A stretch of DNA of 64,000 nucleotides. It comes from a virus (lineage: Duplodnaviria > Heunggongvirae > Uroviricota > Caudoviricetes). Within the stretch, counting starts at the first letter, position 1. The number at the start of each line of letters is the position of its first letter. The position numbers were made by a program, and so were the translations under genes. Below, in pieces: positions 16,258-59,958 of this stretch. The notes beneath the pieces were generated by a model, which was not told the origin of the DNA, made no database searches, and saw nothing but the letters and a program-made list of their open reading frames with translations. The DNA lies in the IMG/VR virus record IMGVR_UViG_3300000571_000003, positions 21,812 to 85,811 of that record; one strand, given 5' to 3'.

Positions 16258-16443
16258 TACCTATACACCGTCAACAGTCATTCGTATACAGTATTATCTG
16301 TCATTATATGATCTGTCATTTTAAGGAATACTTTACACTTTTTTCATTATAAATATAAGGATATATAGTAATATATAGTAGTATTTTGTTATAAACGGGT
16401 TTTGGACATTTCCAAAAATAGCTTCTTTTACACCCTACACTAA

Positions 16444-16549
16444 CACCGTGCACGGTGCCTCTACCCTCTACCCTCTACCCTCTACCCTCTACCCTCTACC
16501 CTCTACCCTCTACCCTCTACCCTCTATCCTCTATCCTCTATGAACTGCG
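16444..16549. repeat. 14-bp perfect palindrome CACCGTGCACGGTG followed by ~13 tandem copies of heptamer CTCTACC(/CTCTATC)
   Basis: Seen directly in the 660-bp non-coding convergent gap; track ORF 16455..16637 is merely the repeat translated (PLPSTLY x3). Confidence 0.85.
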
Positions 16550-16717
16550 CTCTATGAACCTCAAACTATCCACAATAAACAAACACTTGTTCTATAGCAC
16601 CATTCTACTATATAATAGAAAATGCCCAAAAATATAATGTTTTTTATTATTTGTCCCAAGCAAAAACTTTTTCTTGACACCCCATACACCCCATACATGG
16701 TAATATGATAAATTAAT

Positions 16718-24794: not shown

Positions 24795-25076
24795 ATGGAA
24801 AAAAAATTATTCTCCACAAGAGACATATATTTAGCATCAACACTTATAACACTTAAATTTTACATGATTAACATAGACTATCAGATCGAAGGTGATAGAA
24901 ACAGACCAGTAGGATACTTCAGTTTTGAAGAAACAGCTATATTAAAGGATGCATGCCAGAAATACCTACAAGGCTTACTTTCAGTTGAACCAAAGGCTTT
25001 TGTGACAAATCTACATAGTTTAAAATCAACAATTACCAATGTTTATCATAATCCAAACAATATTACAGAGAAATAG
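24795..25076 (+). CDS. hypothetical protein
   Basis: 93-aa ORF divergent from MerR-like gene. Confidence 0.4.
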   Translation: MEKKLFSTRDIYLASTLITLKFYMINIDYQIEGDRNRPVGYFSFEETAILKDACQKYLQGLLSVEPKAFVTNLHSLKSTITNVYHNPNNITEK

Positions 25077-25079
25077 AGC

Positions 25080-25108
25080 TTGACAAGTATTCAAAAATAT
25101 GCTATACT
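25080..25108 (+). promoter_or_regulatory. sigma70-type promoter (family copy 3)
   Basis: cTTGACAagtattcaaaaatatgcTATACTga, 17-nt spacer. Confidence 0.65.
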
Positions 25109-25117
25109 GATTTCAAG

Positions 25118-25272: not shown

Positions 25273-26202
25273 ATGAAGGAATCATTCTACTTCTCACATG
25301 ATTACAACGCAAGAAATGACCAAAAAATATTAATGATAAGAAGTAAATTTGGACTAGCCGGATATGCCCTTTTTTGGATGTGTATAGAGAGCATGGCAGA
25401 GGACACAAATGGGTACATAAATAGAGATGCGATAGGTGGTCTTTCTGTGGCTTATGGCCTCCCCAATGGCCACCCTATAGGCCTCCCCAATGGCCACCCG
25501 TATGGCCTAAAACAGGAGGCCATTTTTACACTCGAAAATTTCATAGATTACTGTATAGAAATAAAAATTTTTTCAGAAATAACAGACGAAAAGGGCAATA
25601 AAAATATACTCTCAAAAAGATTATTAAAGCATAAAGAATTTCGTTCTATTTTAAGCACTTCTGGAAAAAAGGGAGCAATTGCTAGATGGGAAGAAAATAG
25701 CCACCCTATAAGCCACCCTAATGGGGAGGCCTATGGCAAAGAGAGTAAAGTAAAGAAGAGTATAGTAAAGAAAACTAAAGTAGGGAATCCGAGCGAGGGC
25801 TCGGTTTCAGATCAGAAAGAAGAAACTACCAATGACTCTCTACTCTCACTTCTTGATTCAGACCCCCCCTCTGGTAATCCTGAAGATTCATACACTACCC
25901 CAACTGGTGAATTTGATTACGGAAAATATATTGATGACATGATAAAAAATGATAAGAATTTTCATGTCAGAATAATCGCCTGTTATCTTCAAATGAAAGA
26001 TCTGAAATTCTTCTCAAAGGAAGATGTGAGTAAAGCGATAATAAGAAATTCAAGAATTGCCATGAAACTGACTAGTTATCCAATAGACGCAATTGATCTG
26101 ACAGCTGAATTCCTCTGCAACGATAAATACTGGAAAAATGAATGGACATTAGAGACCATCCAAAAATACATAAATGACCCAAGAGTTTATCAGAAGAAAT
26201 AA
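25273..26202 (+). CDS. putative replication initiation protein (Lin1244/DUF4373-like N-terminal domain)
   Basis: N-terminus FYFSHDYNARNDQKILMIRSKFGLAGYALFWMCIE matches the YF.HD.NA.ND.K...L....G..GYG.FW pattern of phage replisome organiser N-domains; internal PNGHP repeats. Confidence 0.45.
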   Translation: MKESFYFSHDYNARNDQKILMIRSKFGLAGYALFWMCIESMAEDTNGYINRDAIGGLSVAYGLPNGHPIGLPNGHPYGLKQEAIFTLENFIDYCIEIKIFSEITDEKGNKNILSKRLLKHKEFRSILSTSGKKGAIARWEENSHPISHPNGEAYGKESKVKKSIVKKTKVGNPSEGSVSDQKEETTNDSLLSLLDSDPPSGNPEDSYTTPTGEFDYGKYIDDMIKNDKNFHVRIIACYLQMKDLKFFSKEDVSKAIIRNSRIAMKLTSYPIDAIDLTAEFLCNDKYWKNEWTLETIQKYINDPRVYQKK

Positions 26203-29206: not shown

Positions 29207-29341
29207 ATGACAGAAACAATAATAGTGGCATCAATAGTACTTTGGTTCTTGGGAGAAGTTACATCTAATACATTTGGAGGACTTATAATTATTCTTCCAG
29301 TAATAGCATCAATAGCGATAATTATGAAAATCTGTAAATAA
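29207..29341 (+). CDS. 44-aa hydrophobic membrane peptide
   Basis: MTETIIVASIVLWFLGEVTSNTFGGLIIILPVIASIAIIMKICK; ATG in TAAATAATATATGACA context; below track cutoff. Confidence 0.35.
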   Translation: MTETIIVASIVLWFLGEVTSNTFGGLIIILPVIASIAIIMKICK

Positions 29342-29354
29342 AAAGTTATTAACA

Positions 29355-29383
29355 CTTGACAAGTAAAGAGAAATGTGCTATAC
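29355..29383 (+). promoter_or_regulatory. sigma70-type promoter (family copy 4)
   Basis: cacTTGACAagtaaagagaaatgtgcTATACTgta, 17-nt spacer. Confidence 0.65.
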
Positions 29384-29389
29384 TGTATG

Positions 29390-29590
29390 CAGAAGATAAG
29401 AGTGGTTGAGTAATAAGCGGAAGCTCATCAAATCGATTCCGGTCTTGCAAATAGTGGTCACGCATGGGTGCGCCACACGTAAACGCTACGTTGAGTCACT
29501 CCGTAGTATGAGCAAGTATAAACAGCGCCACCTTATCTTTAATAAAGCGCCTGTAGAGAACTGGCATCTCATTATGAAATAAATAATATC
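29390..29590 (+). ncRNA. candidate ~200-nt structured non-coding RNA
   Basis: No ORF in any frame; local GC well above genome average; long-range complementary segments (GCTCAT...ATGAGC, CTACG...CGTAG, GTGCGCCAC/GCGCCACC); directly downstream of a consensus promoter. Confidence 0.3.
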
Positions 29591-30965: not shown

Positions 30966-31005
30966 AGATATTATTATTATGCAAAGAAAGACGCATTTAT
31001 AACAT

Positions 31006-31461
31006 ATGACTTATGAAGAGTTTAAAAAGCAACTAGAAATAGATAGGGAATCTACTTGGTATAAAATCTCATACCCTCTTTATCGTACATTCTATTGGCT
31101 ATGCGACTTCCGATATCACCTTCGCTGTATACGATGGTATTTCGTGAGGGGATGGAGAGGCTGGGCAGAATGTGATATGTGGAGCTTTGACAGCTATTTG
31201 ACCTCTTGGGTAGGTGATGCGTTGCGCCACCTCAATAAGCATCGGAATGGTTGTTATCCATCATACCTTGCATCAGAAGAAGAGTGGACAGAAATTATTG
31301 AAAAGATAGCAATCGGTTTCGATATTCCTGCGATTCAAGATGAACTTACACTTGAAGAAGGGGGATACGAAGAATATAAAAAGAAATGGGACGAACTTGA
31401 AGAACGAAGGATTGAAGGAATGACCCTTTTTGTTAAGCACTACCATGGTCTATGGGATTGA
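31006..31461 (+). CDS. hypothetical protein (Trp/Arg-rich)
   Basis: 151-aa ORF. Confidence 0.45.
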   Translation: MTYEEFKKQLEIDRESTWYKISYPLYRTFYWLCDFRYHLRCIRWYFVRGWRGWAECDMWSFDSYLTSWVGDALRHLNKHRNGCYPSYLASEEEWTEIIEKIAIGFDIPAIQDELTLEEGGYEEYKKKWDELEERRIEGMTLFVKHYHGLWD

Positions 31462-31588
31462 TGGGAAAATATAATAAATCATAAAGTATTAAGTATGAGA
31501 GTCATCTTTGAAATACTATTCGCTCTTATCTTGGTCGGGATATGGGCGATCATTATGAAAAAACTATTTATGAATAAGAAAAAATAAT

Positions 31589-32431
31589 ATGACAGAAACT
31601 TCATACGAGAGAGAAGAAAAAAGGAAATTAAAGCTTATTATCGGTGGCGTAATAGCGTTCCTGCTTATAGTGTTGTTTATCGCCATGAATCCGTTTGTTT
31701 TTGTGACAGCTGGACAGCGAGGTGTGGTGATGAATTGGGGTGCTGTGTCTGATACCGTGTTGGGTGAGGGTGTGCACTGGCGAACACCAATAGTGCAGAG
31801 CGTGAAGACGATCGACGTGCGAACACAGAAGGAGCAGGTAGACAGCTCTGCGGCATCAAAGGACATGCAGACGGTTAGTGCTAAAGTTGCGCTTAATTAT
31901 CACGTAATGCCGGAAAAGGTAAATCTCTTATGGCAAAAGATTGGAGCTGATTATAAAGACAGAATTATTGATCCCGCCGTACAGGAAGCGGTTAAGTCTA
32001 CAACAGCGAAGTACACGGCAGAGGAGCTCATTACGAAGCGCGAGAGTGTGAAAGAAGAGATTAAGACAGCTCTTATGACACGGCTTAGTAATGAATATAT
32101 TGCAGTAGATGAGTTCTCGATTGTAGACTTTAATTTCTCTGAGTCGTTTAATAAGGCGATTGAAGCAAAGCAGACTGCCGTGCAACAAGCATTACAGGCA
32201 GAGAACGACTTAAGGCGCATTAAGGTTGAGGCAGAGCAGACGGTCGCCACTGCAAGGGCAAGTGCTGAAGCAATAAAAATACAGGCAGAAGCAATAAATA
32301 GTACAGGTGGTGCTGATTATGTTGCCCTCCAATGGGTTGATGCTTGGAAATCAGGGGGAGCAAGGGTTCCTGAATTTATTACAAGTGAACAGTCCGGTGG
32401 GTTTATTATGAACTTACCAAATAAGAAGTAA
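31589..32431 (+). CDS. SPFH/Band-7 (prohibitin/HflC-like) membrane protein
   Basis: N-terminal TM helix (LIIGGVIAFLLIVLFIAM), then band-7 core (VQSVKTIDVRTQKEQVDSSAASKDMQTVSAKVALNYHV ... AEELITKRESV) and A/E/Q-rich coiled coil; coding GC visibly higher than surroundings. Confidence 0.7.
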   Translation: MTETSYEREEKRKLKLIIGGVIAFLLIVLFIAMNPFVFVTAGQRGVVMNWGAVSDTVLGEGVHWRTPIVQSVKTIDVRTQKEQVDSSAASKDMQTVSAKVALNYHVMPEKVNLLWQKIGADYKDRIIDPAVQEAVKSTTAKYTAEELITKRESVKEEIKTALMTRLSNEYIAVDEFSIVDFNFSESFNKAIEAKQTAVQQALQAENDLRRIKVEAEQTVATARASAEAIKIQAEAINSTGGADYVALQWVDAWKSGGARVPEFITSEQSGGFIMNLPNKK

Positions 32432-32437
32432 AGTCGA

Positions 32438-32465
32438 TTGACAATAGTTTCATATCGTCTATAAT
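32438..32465 (+). promoter_or_regulatory. promoter-like TTGACA-16-TATAAT placed 7 nt before the ATG of the HNH gene (possible leaderless mRNA)
   Basis: TTGACAatagtttcatatcgtcTATAATtagacatATG. Confidence 0.4.
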
Positions 32466-32472
32466 TAGACAT

Positions 32473-33054
32473 ATGATTACAAAAGAACAATTAAGTAAAA
32501 TTAGAAGTGACGCAGCAAAGCTTTCATATCTTAATGGAAGGATTCATCCAAATTTAGGGAAGCATCTTTCGGCTATAACAAAAAAAAGACAAAGTAGAGC
32601 TCGTTTAAAGTTCTATAAAAACGGTGGTATTCATCCTAACACTGGGAAAAAATTCTCTGAAAAAAGAAAAAAGGAAATGAGTGTATTAAATTCAGGAGAT
32701 AAGAACCCAAATTGGAATGGGGGGGTGGTAAAGACAAAAATAGGCTATTTGTTTGAATATTGCCCAAACAGTAAAAGGTCCAATGGGGGGACTATAAACC
32801 ATGTATTGCAACACCGCCTAGTAATGGCTAGACATATTGGAAGAGACTTGTTGTCTTCAGAGGTTGTTCATCACATAAATGGGATTAAGGATGACAATAG
32901 GATAGAAAATCTTGTCATTACGACCGCCTCTAAGCATGTTTCTGGACATAACTCGGAAAGAGTATGGAAAGAAAGTAGTAAGAATAAGCAGCGGATAAAA
33001 GCAGAAAAAATGAGGGATAAAAATAGTGGACGTTTTATCAATCTTACTAAATAA
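32473..33054 (+). CDS. HNH homing endonuclease
   Basis: VVHHINGIKDDNRIENLVITTASKHVSGH HNH core. Confidence 0.6.
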   Translation: MITKEQLSKIRSDAAKLSYLNGRIHPNLGKHLSAITKKRQSRARLKFYKNGGIHPNTGKKFSEKRKKEMSVLNSGDKNPNWNGGVVKTKIGYLFEYCPNSKRSNGGTINHVLQHRLVMARHIGRDLLSSEVVHHINGIKDDNRIENLVITTASKHVSGHNSERVWKESSKNKQRIKAEKMRDKNSGRFINLTK

Positions 33055-33111
33055 TATGTACGAAAAATCAAACTGCTGTGGCGCAATAGCATTGAACATA
33101 CTTATAAATCT

Positions 33112-33195
33112 ATGACCACCCCAATCTGCGCCTGCAACAACCCCCTCTCCCTCAAGAAGCTCTCAGAGCTGACGGAGATAATTAATAAGATGTGA
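33112..33195 (+). CDS. 27-codon leader ORF in GC-rich repeat copy A (MTTPICACNNPLSLKKLSELTEIINKM)
   Basis: ATG in consensus start context; ends ATGTGA 5 nt before next ATG; paralogous to 33653..33724 and 34153..34233. Confidence 0.3.
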   Translation: MTTPICACNNPLSLKKLSELTEIINKM

Positions 33196-33200
33196 ATTAT

Positions 33201-33341
33201 ATGGAAAAGTTTTTAGAAAAGTTTGATACTCTAGCAGAAACAATTTTTAATGAATTTGAGAAGAAGCCACTCTCAACATCGGTAAAAGCACTCATTATCT
33301 ACTGGATATTTCTTAAGATTAAGAATCTTTCACGACGATAA
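33201..33341 (+). CDS. small hypothetical protein (46 aa)
   Basis: MEKFLEKFDTLAETIFNEFEKK...; follows leader ORF A. Confidence 0.3.
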   Translation: MEKFLEKFDTLAETIFNEFEKKPLSTSVKALIIYWIFLKIKNLSRR

Positions 33342-33342
33342 T

Positions 33343-33651
33343 ATGCAAAATGAAATATACATAGCGTTCGGTCTAATCTTCCTTTGCATTATAGGATTAT
33401 TTTACAGCCACACTGACGGTTGGATGAAAAAAATCATTGCAGTATTCATAGCGTTCGTGCTGTTTTCTCTTGGAACAAATCTAACATCGTTAATAAAACC
33501 GATTGTCATTGAAAAAGAAAAAGCAGTTTACTTAACTGATATGAACGAAGGAAGTACAGTACGATGGAATGGTAAAGATTACTGTATTGTTGAAGTTGGT
33601 GATTATGACAGTATCGGAAAGATGACCTTATATCTAAATAAGTGTAAATAA
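33343..33651 (+). CDS. small membrane protein
   Basis: Two predicted TM helices (IYIAFGLIFLCIIGLFY; IIAVFIAFVLFSLG). Confidence 0.45.
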   Translation: MQNEIYIAFGLIFLCIIGLFYSHTDGWMKKIIAVFIAFVLFSLGTNLTSLIKPIVIEKEKAVYLTDMNEGSTVRWNGKDYCIVEVGDYDSIGKMTLYLNKCK

Positions 33652-33652
33652 T

Positions 33653-33724
33653 ATGAACCCCAACAACACCCCCCTCTCCCCAGAGAAGCTCTCAGAGCTG
33701 ACGGAGATTATAAATAAGATGTGA
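33653..33724 (+). CDS. 23-codon leader ORF in GC-rich repeat copy B (MNPNNTPLSPEKLSELTEIINKM)
   Basis: Stop TGA 2 nt before ATG of 33726 gene. Confidence 0.3.
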   Translation: MNPNNTPLSPEKLSELTEIINKM

Positions 33725-33725
33725 T

Positions 33726-34151
33726 ATGAACTACGCTAATTTAAATGAAGATAAAGAAAATAATACTATGAAAGCAGTATTGATTGTTTTTGGTTCTCTA
33801 TTTGCAGCGATTCTAGTGGCTCTTTTATTTTGGGGGATTCCACAGTATGGACTGTACGCACAAGGCTTGAAAGGAGAGGCGAACTTACGCCAGCAGGAAT
33901 GGGAACGAAAGATTCTTGTTCAGCAAGCTACAGCAGAAAGAGATTCGGCAAGTCTCAAGGCAGAAGCAGAAGTTGCGCGTGCAAAAGGTGTGGCTCAGGC
34001 GAATAAAATTATTGCAGAAGGACTTAAAGGAAATGAAGAGTACCTACGCTATCTCTGGATAAATAATCTTGAGCATGTTCAGGGAGCACAGGTTATTTAT
34101 GTCCCAACGGAAGCAGGACTGCCTATTCTTGAAGCGAATAGACTGAAATAA
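33726..34151 (+). CDS. SPFH/Band-7-like protein, short form
   Basis: TM helix (AVLIVFGSLFAAILVALLFWGI) then QQATAERDSASLKAEAEVARAKGVAQANKIIAEGLKGNEEYLRYLWINNLE resembling prohibitin/YqiK C-terminal region. Confidence 0.45.
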   Translation: MNYANLNEDKENNTMKAVLIVFGSLFAAILVALLFWGIPQYGLYAQGLKGEANLRQQEWERKILVQQATAERDSASLKAEAEVARAKGVAQANKIIAEGLKGNEEYLRYLWINNLEHVQGAQVIYVPTEAGLPILEANRLK

Positions 34152-34152
34152 T

Positions 34153-34233
34153 ATGACCACCCCCAACAACATCCCCCTCTCCCCCGAGAAGCTCGCTGAG
34201 ATAGAATCGTATTTCAAGCAAAAACGAATATGA
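34153..34233 (+). CDS. 26-codon leader ORF in GC-rich repeat copy C (MTTPNNIPLSPEKLAEIESYFKQKRI)
   Basis: Stop overlaps start of 34230 gene (ATATGA). Confidence 0.3.
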   Translation: MTTPNNIPLSPEKLAEIESYFKQKRI

Positions 34234-34577
34234 GAAAGTTATATTATGAAGAAGAAAATGGCGAATTTTACTGGGTGAAGGAAACACTAAAGACCTTCAC
34301 TATTGAATGGGTGGCGAAGTTTAATTGTGATAGCGAAAAAACACCGCTTGACCAAAATGTAAAATGGGGGAATATCCTAAAAGTTTCAAAAGAGAAAAAC
34401 AAAAAGCATTGTTTGAGTAGTTATGACGATGAGCATATTTGTATTTATCCATTTCAAAACGGGCAACCTTTCTATTTAGAGCCAGCTACTAAAACTCATA
34501 TTACAAGTGAAATATCAAATTGTGTAAAATGGGGAGTATCAAGTCAGTATTATCAAGATTTAATGCAATTTGTATGA
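34230..34577 (+). CDS. hypothetical protein
   Basis: 115-aa ORF. Confidence 0.45.
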   Translation: MRKLYYEEENGEFYWVKETLKTFTIEWVAKFNCDSEKTPLDQNVKWGNILKVSKEKNKKHCLSSYDDEHICIYPFQNGQPFYLEPATKTHITSEISNCVKWGVSSQYYQDLMQFV

Positions 34578-34777
34578 AAAGAGATACGAAGTGGAGGGAG
34601 GAGTTTGAAGCAAATATGCTTGACGGTGATAGTGTTTATGATTGTGGTGGAGCAACGCTTTCTGCTGAGGATGTATATGAGTATGTTTCTGAATACATCA
34701 CCTCCCTCCTCCAACAGAAGCACGAGGAGAGCTATAAGCTGGGATTCGATGATGGCGTTAAGAGTATGTATAAATAA
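34520..34777 (+). CDS. hypothetical protein
   Basis: 85-aa ORF. Confidence 0.4.
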   Translation: MCKMGSIKSVLSRFNAICMKRDTKWREEFEANMLDGDSVYDCGGATLSAEDVYEYVSEYITSLLQQKHEESYKLGFDDGVKSMYK

Positions 34778-34778
34778 T

Positions 34779-35063
34779 ATGAAAAGAGAAAAAACAAAAC
34801 GTGGTTTTGGATTGATACAGTTTACTGACTATAACGGTGTTGAGTGTTCTCTTCAAAAATCTTCTATAGCCACAGATGATCTTATATGGCTCGGATGCGA
34901 TGATGCTGATCCGCAGTACTTTGTACCCAATGGTAATCCATCATGGCGCAAGCTTGAAGTTCCAGCAGAGACAGTTTTTAATACCCGTATGCACCTCACC
35001 AGATCACAGGTGAAGAAACTAATGCCACATCTTCAAAAATTCATAGATGAAGGAGAAATATGA
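34779..35063 (+). CDS. hypothetical protein
   Basis: Track ORF 34605..35063 trimmed to ATG in TAAATAATATG context (MKREKTKRGFGLIQFTDYNG...). Confidence 0.45.
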   Translation: MKREKTKRGFGLIQFTDYNGVECSLQKSSIATDDLIWLGCDDADPQYFVPNGNPSWRKLEVPAETVFNTRMHLTRSQVKKLMPHLQKFIDEGEI

Positions 35064-35581
35064 CACAAAACCCTAACAGCTCGCTGGAGAGGCTGGTGGA
35101 GAAAGCAGACATTAATTTTGATGCGTGTTTGGACTATCACAAAATACCGTTCCTTCCAGTTGAGTTTCATGAGCTTATTCGAGAGGAACTACGAGTCGCC
35201 TACACCACAGGCTACAACGCAGGACTCGCAGACGAGCGGAAGGCACGAGAGCTTGATAAGAACGAATCATTGGCTGAGTTCAAATCCAGGGAGCAGGATG
35301 AGCTTGATAAATTAAAGAAGAAGATTTTTAATACAAATCTTTGTGAGGAAGAAACATTAAAAAAAATAAAAATAGAACCTTTTCAGAAATCGTCTTGTTG
35401 TGGTGTGAAAGTAATTAAACGAACAAAAGAAGATATGAATAATAGATGGAAAAAATGGCTAGATGGTATATGCATAAATTGTGAAGAAAATTGTGCAGTC
35501 ATCACCGAATCAGCTGATTCCATCCCCCAGACAATGCAGGACTCGCAGACGAGCGGAAGGCACGAGAGCTTGAGTGGGTAA
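35060..35581 (+). CDS. hypothetical protein containing an internal 36-bp direct repeat
   Basis: 173-aa ORF; CAGGACTCGCAGACGAGCGGAAGGCACGAGAGCTTGA occurs at ~35217 and ~35536, read in two different frames. Confidence 0.45.
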   Translation: MTQNPNSSLERLVEKADINFDACLDYHKIPFLPVEFHELIREELRVAYTTGYNAGLADERKARELDKNESLAEFKSREQDELDKLKKKIFNTNLCEEETLKKIKIEPFQKSSCCGVKVIKRTKEDMNNRWKKWLDGICINCEENCAVITESADSIPQTMQDSQTSGRHESLSG

Positions 35582-35898
35582 TGAAAGATGTATGAAACAA
35601 GAAATACTAAGAAGACAAGATATATTCAAATCTTTTTTAGAAAAGGAATTATACAACAACTCTGCTGTTGAGATGTATCAGGAAGACATAAAATCAATAG
35701 TAGAAAATGTAATGACTTTATATCGTGCTGATATTGAGAAAGTAATTGAACTATTAAAAGAACTATGAAACACACACCATTGATTATTGTAGTAGTTTTT
35801 TTGGTTGGTATTTCTTTACTTATATACCTAACACCTTTATGTGAACGTCCTTCCAATTATTTATCAGGGAATGATATGGCTAAGTGTATTTTAAAATG

Positions 35899-35918
35899 AC
35901 CCCCCAGAGATAACATTA
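35899..35918 (+). repeat. 20-bp direct repeat ACCCCCCAGAGATAACATTA (left copy)
   Basis: Identical to 36191-36210; flanks ORF 35939..36205. Confidence 0.8.
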
Positions 35919-35938
35919 ACAAGTAATAAATAAACGAT

Positions 35939-36205
35939 ATGAAAGAAGAAATACATAAAGATATTAAAATAGAACTTCTAAACCCCAAACAAGTTATGGA
36001 AGCATTTTTGGCAGGCGAACGGCTTATAAACTCCAAGTATTGCAATGGGTGGGATAATGATTTATCCAAAGAACCTGAACATTATTTATATTTAGATGAT
36101 GGTGGATATATTGCAGAAGAAGATGGAGCGACTGCAAAGGGAGATAGAATCCCAATCTCATTTAGAGGAAATGAAAGATGGTTTATAATTACCCCCCAGA
36201 GATAA
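35939..36205 (+). CDS. hypothetical protein bounded by 20-bp direct repeats (candidate inserted moron)
   Basis: 88-aa ORF whose stop codon lies inside the right repeat copy. Confidence 0.45.
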   Translation: MKEEIHKDIKIELLNPKQVMEAFLAGERLINSKYCNGWDNDLSKEPEHYLYLDDGGYIAEEDGATAKGDRIPISFRGNERWFIITPQR

Positions 36206-36210
36206 CATTA
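36191..36210 (+). repeat. 20-bp direct repeat ACCCCCCAGAGATAACATTA (right copy)
   Basis: Identical to 35899-35918. Confidence 0.8.
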
Positions 36211-36239
36211 CCCCCAACAGATTAAAATAACTTGGCTAT

Positions 36240-37080
36240 GATATACTATATATGTATGGCACGCTACGTGGGACTGTCTGTATTCCTCCAGGCTTCCAGA
36301 TGGTTTCTTTCTGCAATGAGAGACGTGCCACTCGTTCTTTCACATGGAGGGATAAATGGCTAAGCAAAGCCGTAAGCAAAGTGAGGCTGTTATGCTCTTT
36401 TTCACAGAGGCAGGCATCACGGAGGGCTTCTGGGTTGTATCATGGAATCACAAGTTTATCAGCTTCGGAAAGAAAGGAGGCACAAGTCTTCTCAGAGTGA
36501 GTGCTGACTGGGTATGGAGGTAGAAATGCACTACTGCACTATTTGTAATTCGATGCAAAATAACTGCATCAGTATAGGAGCCGTAGCTATATGTTTGTCT
36601 TGCTGTGAAAAAATAAGCAAGAAAGCAGATGACTATCTTCTCCTACACACAAAGACATGGCATCCACAGATTCACGAACACAGGAAACATATATCCCCGG
36701 ATGAAGCCTCTGACAAACAGCTATGAGCAACGAGACGAGAGATTCAATTCTGTTCACAGCATCCATTGTCATTCTCTGCATCGCTATAGGAGCGAGGATA
36801 CTTCTGAAAGGAGTACTATGAAAAAAATGAAATGCAGTAAATGTCCATTTAAGGGTAACGAGTTCCAGTTCGCTTGGCTCGACACTCGGAAGATGAACGA
36901 ACCAGTCTGCATACCATGCTTCTTGAAGCAGAAAGGAGTGCTATGAGAGTTGAGGTCTGTGCAAATTGCGGAGGTAAGGATATTACAGGAGGTAAGATCA
37001 TTAAAGATCAATCTTATTGTAGAATTTGTAGTCGTACAATTACGGCAACACTTTCAAAAGGTAACTCCTGAATAGAATAC
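36240..37080 (+). other. GC-enriched segment with several short overlapping Cys-rich ORFs in different frames; coding status unclear
   Basis: Track ORFs 36252..36500, 36514..36726, 36629..36946, 36874..37071 (+) and 36587..36781, 36784..37011 (-) overlap; base composition departs from AT-rich background. Confidence 0.3.
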
Positions 37081-37528: not shown

Positions 37529-37597
37529 TATATGCATGTGGTAAATGAATTACCAATAAGGATATTATAAATACCCTTCCTTTTCTTATAAATGCAC

Positions 37598-37626
37598 TTG
37601 ACAAAACGCTAAAAATGTGCTATACT
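37598..37626 (+). promoter_or_regulatory. sigma70-type promoter (family copy 5) upstream of recA
   Basis: cacTTGACAaaacgctaaaaatgtgcTATACTgta. Confidence 0.65.
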
Positions 37627-37749
37627 GTACAGTAGCGATATACCGTAAATAACCTTTATTAAACTTTTTTCATTGGAGAGTATGTCGCTATACAAAACCA
37701 GTGAAAAAAGTATAATAAGGGTTTTTTAAATAATAGATAATATAATAAT

Positions 37750-38781
37750 ATGAAGGAAAAGGAAAAATCAGAAGCAGAAGAAAAAGAACATGCAGTTGAA
37801 GATGCTATATTACAACTTCAAAAAAAATACGGTAAGGCTGCTGTATTACAGATGAATGAAGATGTACGATTTGAAGTTGAAGCAATCTCTACTGGATGTT
37901 TTTCTTTAGATGATGTTTTTGATTGTGGTGGAATGCCGAGAGGGAGGATAATTGAGCTCTTCGGGCCTGAGTCAGGGGGTAAAAGTACAATAGCAACATA
38001 TCTTATGGCAGAAGTTCAGAGACAGGGTGGTAGGGCAGCCCTTATAGATGCAGAACACGCTTTTGATCAAGAATACTCAAAGAGAATAGGTTTAGATGTA
38101 ACAAAGCTTATTGTATCTCAACCAGATACGCTTGAGGAAGCTATAGACGTGGTTAGCAAGCTTGTAGCAAGTCAAGGGGTAGATATTATAGTCGTTGATT
38201 CTGTTGCCGCAATGGTTCCTAAAGCAGAACTTGAGGGAGATGAAATGTTAAAAAGTACAATGGCTCTCCAGGCTCGTCTTATGGGTCAGGCATTAAGAAT
38301 ACTCACAGGATCTGTTTCAAAGAGTAATACTATTGTCATATTTATTAATCAATTAAGAGAAAAAATAGGTGTATTCTATGGTCAGAAAGAAGTAACACCG
38401 GGAGGTAAGGCATTAAAATTTTATGCTTCTGTAAGACTTGAAGTCAAGAAGGGGGATAAAATAGAAGGAAAAGATAAAGAACAGATAGGAAATGAATTAC
38501 GTATAACAGTGGTAAAGAATAAGGTTGGTTATCCATGGAAAAAAACTACATTGAATCTTTATTATGGATCAGGAATAGATCTTTATACAGATGTTATAGA
38601 CTATGGTGAGAAACTTAGGATAATAACAAAAACCGGTCATAGTTATTTATATGGAGATACAAAATTAGGAATTGGAAAAGACAATGCAAAGATATTTCTA
38701 AAAAATAATAATGATATATATGAAAAAATCAGAAACGAAATTAAAGGAAAAGAATCAAAAGAAAGAAAAAATAAGAAATAA
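37750..38781 (+). CDS. recA: RecA recombinase
   Basis: GRIIELFGPESGGKSTIATYLMAEVQRQGGRAALIDAEHAFDQEYSKRIGLDVTKLIVSQPDTLEEAI, IIVVDSVAAMVPKAELEGD, TIVIFINQLREKIGVFYG, GGKALKFYASVRLEV align block-for-block with bacterial RecA. Confidence 0.9.
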   Translation: MKEKEKSEAEEKEHAVEDAILQLQKKYGKAAVLQMNEDVRFEVEAISTGCFSLDDVFDCGGMPRGRIIELFGPESGGKSTIATYLMAEVQRQGGRAALIDAEHAFDQEYSKRIGLDVTKLIVSQPDTLEEAIDVVSKLVASQGVDIIVVDSVAAMVPKAELEGDEMLKSTMALQARLMGQALRILTGSVSKSNTIVIFINQLREKIGVFYGQKEVTPGGKALKFYASVRLEVKKGDKIEGKDKEQIGNELRITVVKNKVGYPWKKTTLNLYYGSGIDLYTDVIDYGEKLRIITKTGHSYLYGDTKLGIGKDNAKIFLKNNNDIYEKIRNEIKGKESKERKNKK

Positions 38782-39232
38782 ACCTAATAAAAAAATAACA
38801 GATATATATGATGCTGTAGTTAAGTCTACATGTGAAGATATAAAAAATAAAAAAGATGTAGAATGTCATGTTCTTTTGATTTCAAATAATAACAAGATAG
38901 TTGTTGCGCAATTAGGAGATTGTAATAACTTTAATGAAAGAAGCGATGTACTTTCATTATTGGCTAAAAACCTTATAAAAGAAAAGATATCGATTAATGC
39001 GGCAATATCAATATCAGAAGCATATATGACCTTAATTAATAAAGATGAAGTGAAAAAAGATAAAGATGAGGTTTTGTTCTTTACTGCAATTGATGAATTT
39101 GGTAATCAAATGGAGTCAGTATATAAGATTATTAGAGATAAAGATGATATAGATTTAGAAAATATTATGAATGATGATGGGCTAAAGCTGAAAAACAATC
39201 TTTTACAGTCATTTTGGGTATCTTATAAATAA
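38720..39232 (+). CDS. hypothetical protein
   Basis: Track ORF 38711..39232; overlaps recA 3' end in another frame so true start may be further downstream. Confidence 0.4.
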   Translation: MKKSETKLKEKNQKKEKIRNKPNKKITDIYDAVVKSTCEDIKNKKDVECHVLLISNNNKIVVAQLGDCNNFNERSDVLSLLAKNLIKEKISINAAISISEAYMTLINKDEVKKDKDEVLFFTAIDEFGNQMESVYKIIRDKDDIDLENIMNDDGLKLKNNLLQSFWVSYK

Positions 39233-39246
39233 ATAGTTATTAACAC

Positions 39247-39275
39247 TTGACAAGTATTAAAAAGTATGCTATACT
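39247..39275 (+). promoter_or_regulatory. sigma70-type promoter (family copy 6)
   Basis: cacTTGACAagtattaaaaagtatgcTATACTata. Confidence 0.65.
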
Positions 39276-39340
39276 ATATTCAAGATGATTAAAAAGGTCG
39301 ATTTAGAAAGTAAATTAAATATTATTAAATTAAAAAAAAT

Positions 39341-39982
39341 ATGAATATTTTTGAACAAGGACGAGAAATGAAAGCAGGATGGGCATCATTTAAGAACATT
39401 GGAGATGGCACACAAGGTACGTATGTAGGTAAAAAAGCAGCTATTGATAGCTATAATAACAAACAAACAGTCTATGAGCTTATGGATGAGTTTGGAAACA
39501 TCGTACTTGTTGGTATTAAGGACACTAATACTCCATTTCATGACCAGATGAAGCATGTGAGATTAGGGCAAATTATTGGTGTAAAATACGTAAAAGATAT
39601 TCCAGGAGACAGGGGGAATCCATTTAAACTACTTTCTGTATGGTCAGATCCTAAGATTGTAAATAAAGAGTGGTTAGAGTCATATTCTAACGTACAAACA
39701 GAGATGCCAGTACAACTACAACAGAATCAAGTCTTCTCAAGTCAACCATCTGCTGACGAAGGATCTGGCTCACATAAGAATAATATTTCACAGAATGTTG
39801 ATCCTTTATTTGGTGACGTTCCATTTATTACAGAAGAAGACAAAATTAAAAAGATCATTGAAATTGCAGGTACAAAATTTAATCTCACAGATGCTAATGA
39901 TATTAAAAACAAGGTGATGGAAGAGACAAAACTTGCATTTATCGTTTCAAATTTAGATGCAATTATAACTGCACTCATCTAA
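39341..39982 (+). CDS. hypothetical protein (first gene after promoter copy 6)
   Basis: 213-aa ORF; position in recombination module suggests a DNA-binding role but no motif recognised. Confidence 0.5.
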   Translation: MNIFEQGREMKAGWASFKNIGDGTQGTYVGKKAAIDSYNNKQTVYELMDEFGNIVLVGIKDTNTPFHDQMKHVRLGQIIGVKYVKDIPGDRGNPFKLLSVWSDPKIVNKEWLESYSNVQTEMPVQLQQNQVFSSQPSADEGSGSHKNNISQNVDPLFGDVPFITEEDKIKKIIEIAGTKFNLTDANDIKNKVMEETKLAFIVSNLDAIITALI

Positions 39983-39997
39983 ATAATATATAAACAT

Positions 39998-40261
39998 ATG
40001 AAGATTATATCACAAGAAGAACTTCTTAAATTTGAACTTAAGGTTAATCCACGTTCATTAAAGAAAACAAACTTATTGAGAGATGAATTAGATAAGATTG
40101 AAGTAGGACAAATATTATTTATTGGAAGTACTGAATGGGATATTAAGTCATCTCCATCATGTATGATTAATAGTTGGTATGTTAAAAATAAAACAGGAAA
40201 GGTATTCTCTCAGAGAACTCTTGTAGATGACAGTGGATGGATTATAACTAGATTAAAATAA
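39998..40261 (+). CDS. small protein, tandem paralog A
   Basis: MKIISQEELLKFELK...DELDKIEVGQILFI...SGWIITRLK. Confidence 0.5.
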   Translation: MKIISQEELLKFELKVNPRSLKKTNLLRDELDKIEVGQILFIGSTEWDIKSSPSCMINSWYVKNKTGKVFSQRTLVDDSGWIITRLK

Positions 40262-40272
40262 TATATAAATAT

Positions 40273-40539
40273 ATGAAGATTATATCACAAGAAGAACTGC
40301 AATGTTTAAGTCTAAAAACCATTGGAAATCTAAAACAAATCGGAAGAAATTTAGTGAAAGACGAGCTAGATAAAATGGATATTGGACAGACTCTTCTTAT
40401 TGAAAAAGAAGATTGGACACGAAAATCTCCACCTCCGTCATGTATTAATGGGTGGTATACAAATCATGGTAATAAAAAACTATTTTCTTCACGAACACTT
40501 AAGGATGAATCTGGATGGGTCATTAGGAGAATTAGATAA
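40273..40539 (+). CDS. small protein, tandem paralog B
   Basis: MKIISQEELQCLSLK...DELDKMDIGQTLLI...SGWVIRRIR; upstream 40 nt also duplicated. Confidence 0.5.
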   Translation: MKIISQEELQCLSLKTIGNLKQIGRNLVKDELDKMDIGQTLLIEKEDWTRKSPPPSCINGWYTNHGNKKLFSSRTLKDESGWVIRRIR

Positions 40540-40545
40540 AATAAT

Positions 40546-58032: not shown

Positions 58033-59958
58033 TTAAACAGAATATATTCTAATCTCTCCCCGAGCACCATCAGCACCAACGGCACCTAAATTACCCCCCC
58101 CACCGCCTCCGCCGCCTGCACCTGGAACTCCACCAGCACCACCAGCACCACCAGTACCAGATGTTCCACCACTTCCGCCACCGCCGCCGCCTGTTCCAAT
58201 ATCTCCATTTGTTCCTGCCGTCCCAGCACCTCCATTCCCAGATCCTCCTACTCCTCCAGCACCACCAGCACCACCACCTCCTGCAGAGTATGATTGAATG
58301 TTTCCACCAGCACCGCCAGGACCAGGAGTTGTTGCTCCACTACCTCCACCAGGTGCTCCAAAAAGTGAACTTCCTCCGGCTGGACCAGGTGTCCCTTGTC
58401 CACCTCCAGATCCCCCACCCCATTCTGCTGATTTTCCATCTGAAGTAACAGCACTTCCTGCTCCTTGCCCACTTAATCCATTCGATCCAGCAGTTATTGC
58501 AGTTGAACCTCCAAGTGAACTTGCACCAACCTGACCTAATTGACCAGCACCTGCCCATCCTCCTCCTCCGCCGCCTGAATATGTTCCACCTTGTCCTCTT
58601 ATTCCACCATTACCACCATATGCAGATATATAAGAACCGAATGAAGATGTTGCACCTCCAGAGGCATCTCCACCGACAGCTCCTGCCGCTCCACCTGCTC
58701 CTATCGTTATTGCTACAGTCGCAGATAAATCTGAAGCCTTAAAAACTTTTTGTATAACAGCACCGCCTCCACCGCCAGTACCACCTCCGAAAGAACCTGC
58801 GTTCTGTCCTCCTCCACCACCACCTCCTCCTGCGATGACTACAACTACAACTAATGAAGCTCCGGCTGGTTTTGTCCATATTCCATTCGCTGTGAATATT
58901 TGAAGATTTCCAACATTTGAACCAGTTATTATCGCGCCAGACATAGTTACAACCCCAGATTGTGTAACTGTGAAAGTAGGACTTCCTGTAGGACCAGCAG
59001 CTATTGCTGTTGCGCTTCCTGGAGTCAAAGCTACGGTATTTCCTCCAGTTACAACAGTGATACTTCCTGCAGTTATAGTCCCTATATTAGCACTTATAGC
59101 CGAGAGTTGTGAGACATTCATTAATGCCGCTGTAATCGAGTTTGCTACTATTGCATTAGTAGCAAGTATCTTTAATCCTCCTATACCTCCAAATACCTCA
59201 AATTCAGCCTCTGTTGCTCCGTTTATAGCCGTAGCGACTAATACCTTACCAGAACCTACTGCTGTAGTCGCAGTCGTTGTTACTTGATATGCGATTATTG
59301 AAACGGCTATATCTAAATATATATACGTCCGTGCCGCCATATTCCCTGTATTGCCTGCTCCTATAGCGTATGAAGTGCCTCCTGCAGTTGTAAATGTACC
59401 TACTCCCCATGAAACAGTATCTAAATCAGTAGAAGAGAATGCAGATGTCTGTGTCCATCCTTGGGCGGCTATATTAATGTTAGATAGGGCTACAAGACCA
59501 GATAATGTAGAAGTAGCAACAGAACCGCCAGTGATAGTTATATTTGAAAATGTACCGACTCCTGCATTACTTATCTTAGCTATTGCCGCTGCAAACGTAC
59601 CAGCTCCAAGCCACATGTTACCATCAACATCTACATGGAATGACGTTGCGTCTGAACCGCCTATGTCTATGGATGATGCCTCAATACTTCCAGAGAAGAA
59701 ACCGTTCATCGCCTCAATGTTTCCTGTACGACCATCTATAATAAATCCCTGTTTTCTCGGTAAATAATTACGTGACTTTATCCATGTACTTATAATTATA
59801 TCATTAAGTGTCTTTCCCGTCTCTACCGTATTTTCACCCTGATTTTGATTATAGTCAGATGGATTTACCGTACCAGAAAGTGGCACAGGTGTTTCAGAAG
59901 TTCTATTTAGTGAACTACTGTATGGTCTATCAATTGTTGTATAATCTAAATCAGGCAT
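58033..59958 (-). CDS. Gly-rich tail-fibre-like protein (641 aa)
   Basis: N-terminal globular region then ~400 aa of GGxGG/GxG runs; GC-rich GGN codons produce spurious antisense ORFs. Confidence 0.55.
   Translation of the reverse strand: MPDLDYTTIDRPYSSSLNRTSETPVPLSGTVNPSDYNQNQGENTVETGKTLNDIIISTWIKSRNYLPRKQGFIIDGRTGNIEAMNGFFSGSIEASSIDIGGSDATSFHVDVDGNMWLGAGTFAAAIAKISNAGVGTFSNITITGGSVATSTLSGLVALSNINIAAQGWTQTSAFSSTDLDTVSWGVGTFTTAGGTSYAIGAGNTGNMAARTYIYLDIAVSIIAYQVTTTATTAVGSGKVLVATAINGATEAEFEVFGGIGGLKILATNAIVANSITAALMNVSQLSAISANIGTITAGSITVVTGGNTVALTPGSATAIAAGPTGSPTFTVTQSGVVTMSGAIITGSNVGNLQIFTANGIWTKPAGASLVVVVVIAGGGGGGGGQNAGSFGGGTGGGGGAVIQKVFKASDLSATVAITIGAGGAAGAVGGDASGGATSSFGSYISAYGGNGGIRGQGGTYSGGGGGGWAGAGQLGQVGASSLGGSTAITAGSNGLSGQGAGSAVTSDGKSAEWGGGSGGGQGTPGPAGGSSLFGAPGGGSGATTPGPGGAGGNIQSYSAGGGGAGGAGGVGGSGNGGAGTAGTNGDIGTGGGGGGSGGTSGTGGAGGAGGVPGAGGGGGGGGNLGAVGADGARGEIRIYSV

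Follow-up and report, generated by a model that had tools for sequence, protein, structure and literature searches.

Three short open reading frames (ORFs) in the genome of an uncultivated tailed phage are, in our reading, duplicated gene-start fragments that frame mobile gene cassettes rather than leader peptides, and we put the probability of this reading at roughly 0.7. The phage DNA analyzed here (the window) is a stretch of 64,000 nt, positions 21,812 to 85,811 of IMG/VR record IMGVR_UViG_3300000571_000003; it is AT-rich (~33% GC), and the upstream part of the contig carries Pfam matches to a P22/SU10-type portal and an SU10-type capsid. The three mini-ORFs lie on the + strand and are referred to as copy A (33112-33195, 27 aa, the most degenerate copy), copy B (33653-33724, 23 aa) and copy C (34153-34233, 26 aa). 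Together with the intervening genes they form an array in the order copy A, a cassette of two genes (46 and 102 aa), copy B, a 141-aa gene, copy C, a 115-aa gene and the rest of the gene that begins with copy C. Public gene calls omit all three mini-ORFs, so that an operon of otherwise tightly packed genes shows gaps of 288, 74 and 78 nt. An earlier note, made from the letters of the window, had described three paralogous, intact ORFs of 23-27 codons at these places, for which coordinates and frames were verified, and had taken them for Pro/Asn-rich leaders working as a translational attenuation or coupling device.

The identity of the mini-ORFs was read from a homologue in which the gene is not split. 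Metagenome contigs were scanned with an alignment of the three peptides, and at least one homologue of the gene-start patch was recovered, contig L010 (ORMF012534808.1, 2558 nt), the only external one among the matches listed. At L010 position 2445, right after a TAA-T junction, the contig reads ATGAACCCCAACAACACCCCCCTCTCCCCCGAGAAGCTCACTGAGATAGATACGAAGTGGAGGGAGGAGTTT... (also given as ATGAACCCCAACAACACCCCCCTCTCCCCCGAGAAGCTCACTGAGATAGATACGAAGTGGAGGGAGGAG...), translating MNPNNTPLSPEKLTEIDTKWREEF..., in an ORF that is open to the contig end, 114 nt into the gene. The first 39 nt of this patch are 97% identical to copy B and 45 nt are 96% identical to copy C, and the next 25 nt (L010 2492-2516) are 100% identical to window 34582-34606, the start of a 67-aa ORF (MKRDTKWREEFEANM...); L010 2445-2516 is the copy-C patch joined directly, in frame, to the patch of window 34582-34606. 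Because L010 fuses the patch in frame to a homologue of the 67-aa ORF, the alignment shows copy C and the ORF at 34574-34777 to be the two halves of one gene, which a related phage has as a single uninterrupted frame. The borders of the inserted segment, which carries the 115-aa gene, fall at ~34203-34206 and ~34580-34583, so that 34153-34205 is the original 5' end of the split gene and copy C owes its last 9 codons and stop (ESYFKQKRI*) to the insert. The copy C stop overlaps the ATG of the insert (ATATGA), and the ATG of the 67-aa ORF overlaps the stop of the insert (GTATGA). The earlier note had named homologous repeats in relatives lacking the ATG or the frame as grounds for giving up a coding role; this is not what was found, as the sequence is coding in L010, though not as a leader.

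The peptide-alignment scan returned no patch homologue in IMG/VR, a scan of the genome collection gave none either, the P5 patch had no match in IMG/VR, and a protein search that included the copy-C peptide gave 2 candidates, neither matching copy C. One IMG/VR match (L001) to the exact or degenerate DNA pattern of the core repeat lies inside an unrelated gene and was rejected as a chance match.

The family of the split gene places the mini-ORF sequence at a protein N-terminus. The 67-aa ORF (34574..34777, + strand), the 3' half of the split gene, has a FEANMLDGD-type small domain without a Pfam or PHROG match and contains a second conserved patch (window 34704-34751). An exhaustive HMMER search collected 116 cluster representatives of its family, which share a ~45-residue domain FEANMLDGDDVYDCGGAMLSAEDVYEY; homologues carry ~8-25 residues before the domain, and some of these stretches are Thr/Pro/Asn-rich, e.g. 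MNTPTTPNTLQKHFEANMLDG and MTTQPTEDSLREHFEANMLDG. A similar N-terminus and a C-terminal (S/A)Y..G(F/Y)..G motif occur in one ORF at window 35060, at L010 986 and at L010 676 (MTTRKKLDEILE...). The first of these is the gene at 35060..35581 (+ strand; N-terminus MTQNPNSSLERLVE), whose C-terminal motif AYTTGYNAG compares with SYKLGFDDG in the split gene. Judged from these alignments, the mini-ORF sequence is the natural N-terminus of such small proteins, M(T)TPNN.PLSPEKL.E, and the split gene, by the same comparison, is one that continues into the FEANMLDGD-type domain, several members ending in the (S/A)Y..G(F/Y)..G motif. Since the leader sequence is the natural N-terminus of such proteins, fission by insertion is favored over fusion by precise deletion as the probable history. 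Two of the FEANMLDGD family loci in IMG/VR (L024 and L025 of L024-L026) were examined, and both are ordinary small genes with no leader repeats. The FEANMLDGDDVYDCGGAMLSAEDVYEY family is itself unannotated, with highly variable N- and C-terminal extensions and no Pfam or PHROG model.

The genes between the copies were then considered as units of their own, with close variants retrieved by cluster look-ups. The 46-aa gene (33201-33341, + strand) and the 102-aa gene for a membrane-like protein (33343-33651, + strand) are the first and second genes of a cassette (33199..33651) lying exactly between copies A and B. Window 33199-33651 aligns ungapped at 86.3% nucleotide identity to seven contigs of another phage (L016-L022); the homology begins 2 nt before the ATG of the first gene and ends at the stop codon of the second, and copies A and B immediately flank the cassette outside this homology. 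The 115-aa gene that splits its host gene (34230..34577, + strand) is found in four unrelated neighborhoods (L012-L015), to which window 34227-34580 is 86-87.5% identical in nucleotides; here too the homology stops at most a few bases away from the start and stop codons, and the four contexts are without the leader patch. A search of IMG/VR with the 115-aa gene gave no match, the protein has no Pfam or PHROG match, and its AlphaFold model (mean pLDDT 37.6) was unusable. These alignments show the 115-aa gene and the 46+102 pair to be portable units.

The third intervening gene, between copies B and C, encodes the 141-aa protein (33726..34151, + strand) and is presumed to be an inserted gene as well. 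It has >5000 homologues, and L002-L004 and the 120 listed proteins, the window's own aside, are all ≤70% identical to it. Of its relatives L002-L004, the one examined (L002) has no leader upstream. The earlier note had called this product an SPFH protein; it is SPFH-related (phrog_11227, 2.7e-47), without a Pfam Band_7 match and with a weaker match to phrog_200, and a full Band_7 protein is encoded separately at 31589-32431. A sensitive blastn search with 33050-34300 returned only a 67% match, inside the 141-aa gene, to Ralstonia phage RSP15, and megablast of window 31000-37000 against deposited phages returned no match. One sequence (L009 1-1625, GCA_900218215.1) has unrelated GC-rich sequence joined to window 33932-34588 inside the 141-aa gene and is probably an assembly chimera.

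The flanking repeat changes with the genome that receives the cassette. In L016-L022 the 46+102 cassette is flanked on both sides by a different direct repeat, a 24-nt exact copy of CTTTATTTATTATTAGCTATAAAG, which fills most of the spacer between the preceding stop and the next start and has a third copy in L016 at another junction. With one cassette framed by unrelated repeats in two phages, the repeat is a property of the recipient genome rather than of the cassette. A gene-start patch is repeated at L016 6660-7560 as well (MPVNHDTAGES, MPENNNTAGES, MQTTHDT), a patch of its own in an unrelated phage, so the phenomenon is not unique to the window: 5 nt before a methyltransferase gene, one patch copy forms an ORF of 27 codons, and another starts the following coding segment. 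An in-frame fusion across a AAATAATATG junction links the L016 methyltransferase to the next member of the family, and L016 8537-8722 and 8796-9273, in genes adjoining the 46+102 cassette, contain long tandem repeats, in frame, with units of 21 nt and 15 nt.

Comparison of the copies with one another bore out part of what had been reported for them. A 21-nt core, CCCCTCTCCC...AGAAGCTC, occurs 3 times at ≤3 mismatches and had 0 matches in 100 shuffles. Copies A and B had been put at up to ~85% identity; they are indeed similar, at a higher value of 90% over 61 nt, and are alike over their full length, including the tail TEIINKM and the stop codon. Copy C keeps only the first part (94% identity to B over 34 nt, 62% across the 61-nt register). 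The description of the repeats as GC-rich holds, since the 5' ~55-70 nt of each copy form a GC island of 60-68% (40-nt windows) on a background of ~33-38%; the GC content of the entire ORFs is 48-50%. Each stop abuts or overlaps the next ATG, as had been reported, with stop-to-ATG distances of +5 nt (A), +1 nt (B) and -4 nt (C, ATGA). The standard start context AAATAATATG precedes copies B and C and not copy A, whose ATG instead overlaps (ATGA) the stop of an additional 19-codon ORF (MYEKSNCCGAIALNILINL; 33056..33115, + strand), which itself starts TAA-T-ATG after the preceding HNH endonuclease gene. A 13-nt palindrome AGCTCTCAGAGCT, reported for the repeats in general, is present in A and B and absent from C and L010; as palindromes of this type number 28 in the window against 28.7 in shuffles, its frequency is that of chance and not significant, and the palindrome was rejected as a binding site.

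At the codon level there is little sign of selection on the peptide. The label "polyproline-like" does not fit, with zero consecutive prolines (PP) in A, B or C, and there is no single-amino-acid codon repeat beyond Asn-Asn. Length differences between the copies are all in frame on the codon alignment, and the reading frame is kept. Copy A departs from B and C by an additional in-frame stretch (residues ICAC), one codon fewer and two radical replacements (Pro to Leu and Glu to Lys). By counts on the codon alignment, the 12 codons shared among the copies carry ~4 non-synonymous changes to 1 synonymous, and the nucleotide changes between A and B are 3 non-synonymous to 2 synonymous. The swap of ATAATT for ATTATA in an Ile-Ile pair is real and synonymous, and, with substitutions mostly non-synonymous, it is no evidence for selection on the peptide, contrary to the coding constraint read from it. 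Nothing indicates that the peptide sequence of the mini-ORFs matters.

Signs of recombination are found at the patches and at other gene starts. L010 and the window share five kinds of GC-rich patch, each 25-75 nt long and 89-100% identical, with unalignable DNA between them. The 5' part of the leader patch is of one of two types, ATGAACCCC (B and L010) or ATGACCACCCC (A and C), and so is the 3' part, CTCTCAGAGCTG (A and B) or CTC(G/A)CTGAGATAGA (C and L010). All four combinations of 5' and 3' types are present among A, B, C and L010, copy A having a C-like 5' end and a B-like 3' end, and this pattern shows the four versions of the patch to be recombinants of one another. The gene at 35060-35581 has a 317-nt insertion between 43-nt direct repeats (35214-35256 and 35531-35573) that are 98% identical; the second repeat copy is read in another frame, and L010 986-1156 is an uninterrupted 56-codon form. 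This arrangement echoes that of the leader copies. Two tandem paralogues (39998-40261 and 40273-40539) encode proteins 48% identical, with 98% identity over the ~20 nt upstream and the first 27 coding nt, which suggests homogenization or constraint localized to gene 5' ends at 39960-40545.

The junctions between the mini-ORFs and their neighbors were compared with those of the rest of the + strand block (25.3-47 kb) by a walk in which the nearest ORF-opening ATG was taken at each stop. Most junctions of the block are TAA-T-ATG (+1), ATGA (-4) or a few bases, and between 32473 and 35899 an unbroken series of 17 ORFs has gaps of -4 to +6 nt from one to the next. Gene starts have A/T-rich contexts of the AATAATATG type upstream, without Shine-Dalgarno sequences. 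Termination-reinitiation at overlapping or abutting stop and start codons is a familiar form of coupling, e.g. in trpB-trpA and many phage operons, and the ATGA, TGA-T-ATG and TAA-T-ATG junctions without a Shine-Dalgarno sequence before the starts resemble it; here they differ in being the general junction pattern of the whole genome and not a mark of three ORFs. With the same junctions at most adjacent ORFs, coupling is not special to the mini-ORFs. Of the proposed coupling device, what stands is that generic translational coupling of the mini-ORFs to the downstream genes is plausible from the stop and start positions; a dedicated device is not supported, the junction being found genome-wide. 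The mini-ORFs are probably translated only as links of the coupled ORF chain.

We propose that each mini-ORF reproduces the 5' end (ATG and ~17 codons) of a small phage gene and that the three sit as direct repeats around cassettes that would have been inserted into or beside that gene. The junction anatomy suggests that the insertions occurred via recombination at short repeated sequences, and two routes could be envisaged. In the first, two crossovers at the near-universal junction microhomology (...AAATAA-T-ATG...) would duplicate the stop-to-start unit of the recipient; in the second, a circle bearing one repeat would integrate by a single crossover, as proposed for mini-circles carrying promoter-early stem-loop (PeSL) elements (PMC2839356). 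The RecA-like recombinase (gene at 37750-38781) or the many homing endonucleases could provide breaks and strand exchange. Downstream genes are probably reached by termination-reinitiation, and an insertion would be tolerated only if the coupled ORF chain stays intact; because these genes are probably reached without Shine-Dalgarno sites, the fragments would stay open and end at the next ATG. The repeats may in this way hand ribosomes to the inserted genes, and they may also ease deletion or exchange of a cassette by homologous recombination.

Several points weigh against gene-start duplication. No near-isogenic phage lacking a cassette was found, and neither an insertion nor an excision was directly observed; all other contigs of the phage, among them the 87-kb ENA contig ERZ27253378 k141_1531468, are 100% identical and show no population variation. 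Junction anatomy is the sole basis of the proposed recombination mechanism. The polarity of events comes from one comparison with L010 (at least one homologue among the matches listed) and from family architecture, and that sole listed patch homologue sits on a 2.6-kb contig ending 114 nt into the gene. For the 141-aa gene, cassette borders cannot be defined from relatives, those listed being at ≤70% amino acid identity. Full-length sharing between A and B fits duplication of a pre-existing complete mini-ORF, possibly with its own function, and the ATG, frame and stop are intact in all copies, so that some selection must maintain them.

A bolder version of the first route, which we regard as unlikely, holds that phages with TAA-T-ATG/ATGA junctions and no Shine-Dalgarno sites generally copy the stop-to-start unit of the recipient on either side of a cassette bounded by start and stop codons, so that the mini-ORFs would be adaptors and not scars. 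If true, insertion would of itself leave the recipient gene and its coupled translation intact, and an integron-like array would arise with no integrase; the duplicated unit would measure 26 nt (a spacer) in one phage and 72-84 nt (a mini-ORF) here.

It is quite unlikely that A, B and perhaps C are independent micro-protein genes, functional peptides of 23-27 aa that share an N-terminus with longer proteins. Intact ATG, frame and stop in the three ORFs would fit this, as would the canonical start context of B and C and the full-length conservation of A and B with their TEIINKM tail. Yet IMG/VR, the genome collection and the metagenome-scan matches listed yielded no free-standing homologue, and neither of the 2 protein-search candidates matched the copy-C peptide. 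Moreover, the tail of copy C is clearly insert sequence, copy A is degenerate and there is no excess of synonymous changes.

Very unlikely, in our assessment, is a dedicated nucleotide-level site, in which the GC-rich patch would be an integron-like attachment site or the cleavage target of an HNH enzyme and capture would be enzyme-driven. The cassettes are indeed promoterless and set apart by direct repeats in an array, phages that otherwise cannot be aligned agree at 95-97% in the patch, and the genome is crowded with homing endonucleases. A free-standing HNH homing-endonuclease gene (32473..33054, + strand; Pfam HNH_3 3.4e-11, and several PHROG HNH families) adjoins the array upstream, 57 nt before copy A, with its own perfect promoter (TTGACA-16-TATAAT, 32438-32465, + strand; 12/12 positions in the promoter scan). 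Against such a site, no integrase or transposase family is among the precomputed Pfam matches of the genes called at window 28.7-39.6 kb, and the only palindrome is at chance frequency and missing from two of the four patch versions. The same cassette has an unrelated flanking repeat in another phage, the 115-aa gene occurs in four other contexts without the patch, and the insertion points inside the patch differ between A/B and C. Integrons, the familiar gene-cassette arrays, resemble the present case in that promoterless cassettes separated by repeats are read in one direction, and differ from it in that no integrase family (on the same Pfam matches) and no attC-like repeat structure are found here, where the repeats are recipient-specific and do not travel with the cassette.

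Regulation by leader peptides, in which stalling or modulated translation of Pro/Asn-rich mini-ORFs would set downstream expression by attenuation or regulated coupling, is hardly credible. In its favor, each mini-ORF immediately precedes a gene and stops at or beside the ATG of that gene, and the frame is kept despite the length differences between copies. Against it, the peptides have neither a run of prolines nor any other known arrest motif, the + strand has no terminator or promoter within or behind the repeats, there is no Rfam match and no fold shared between copies, the junction type is widespread in the genome, the L010 sequence is the N-terminus of a longer protein and substitutions are mostly non-synonymous. 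Specifically, the promoter scan gave no promoter-like site inside 33112-33195, 33653-33724 or 34153-34233, no + strand terminator was found in or after any copy, and the one Rfam match, a sub-threshold miRNA match, lies elsewhere than in the repeats. RNA folding gave predicted folds that differ by copy, and for the L010 copy the fold is no better than that of shuffles (z = +0.96). The leader is not conserved as a separate ORF, being the N-terminus in L010 (the only homologue among the matches listed) and missing from L002. Leader-peptide attenuators such as trpL and ermCL share with the mini-ORFs a short ORF (23-27 codons here) directly upstream of a gene and differ in having alternative hairpins, a terminator, a run of regulatory codons or an arrest motif, and a leader that is conserved as an ORF by itself, none of which is seen here. 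A dedicated attenuation device, as originally suggested, is not supported by these results. Two further candidates were rejected: base pairing between the C-rich tract of the leader and the G-rich one in the patch that follows it in L010, for which the fold is no better than shuffles, and a programmed frameshift fusing leader to downstream gene, for which the frame offsets differ (B +1, A +2 and C +2, from coordinates).

With gene-start duplication as the preferred reading, the array resembles, by analogy, known kinds of phage mosaicism, of which it would be a variant. PeSL cassettes of T4-type phages consist of a sigma-70 promoter and a terminator hairpin and are non-coding (Arbiol et al. 2010, PMC2839356; PMC4122927). 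As with PeSLs, short direct repeats flank cassettes of small genes, mostly of unknown function, in a variable region; recombination between repeats is the proposed cause of insertions, deletions and replacements (PMC2839356; PMC4122927); and a circle with one repeat plus a gene is a plausible vehicle. Unlike PeSLs, the repeats here are without promoter or terminator and are the translated 5' end of a gene; because the defining promoter and terminator are absent, the array is not a PeSL, and PeSLs are its closest analogue in role. The second comparison is with genes in pieces, e.g. nrdA of phage Aeh1 split by mobE (PMC3045599; review PMC2988022). In common with these, a relative has an uninterrupted homologue, both halves remain ORFs, the insert supplies the stop of the first half and the start of the second, and the insert is independently mobile (the 115-aa gene being found in four other neighborhoods). 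The 115-aa insert differs in matching no homing-endonuclease or other family in Pfam or PHROG, the first half here is just 17 native codons, and the 5' fragment is duplicated twice more.

For annotation, this means that short upstream ORFs resembling leader peptides can be gene-start fragments from cassette insertion, and no new regulatory mechanism is opened by the mini-ORFs. For phage evolution, the array is a base-level case of accessory genes moving between unrelated uncultivated phages, bounded at or near start and stop codons, with the inserted genes framed by repeated recipient sequence that is here a coding fragment and not a promoter-terminator cassette. If the coupling inference is right, it would provide a simple rule for surviving insertions in genomes that rely on termination-reinitiation.

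Further observations were made outside the array. Mobile elements are also present in other parts of the contig: a 924-aa protein encoded at window 1144-3918 (minus strand) has an intein carrying a LAGLIDADG domain, and four more LAGLIDADG genes lie among structural genes just upstream of the window (L023 17422-21641). Four near-identical sigma-70-type promoters, TTGACA-N17-TATACT, are found at 25059-25115, 29335-29391, 37595-37629 and 39226-39282; in the scanned interval 3/4 have a TG before the -10 hexamer, and 2 share upstream TAAATAAA.AGTTATTAACAC. These four could be repeated early-promoter cassettes of the phage. Window 16430-16575 holds ~20 tandem copies of the 7-nt CCTCTAC. A GC-rich repeat with a 12-nt period (GGCCTCCCCAATGGCCACCCTATA...) occupies 25441-25506 and 25696-25737, just upstream of and inside the start of a 309-aa gene at 25273, and 58058-58845 (minus strand) has 51-78% GC with 9-nt-periodic repeats that would encode Gly-rich, collagen-like repeats.

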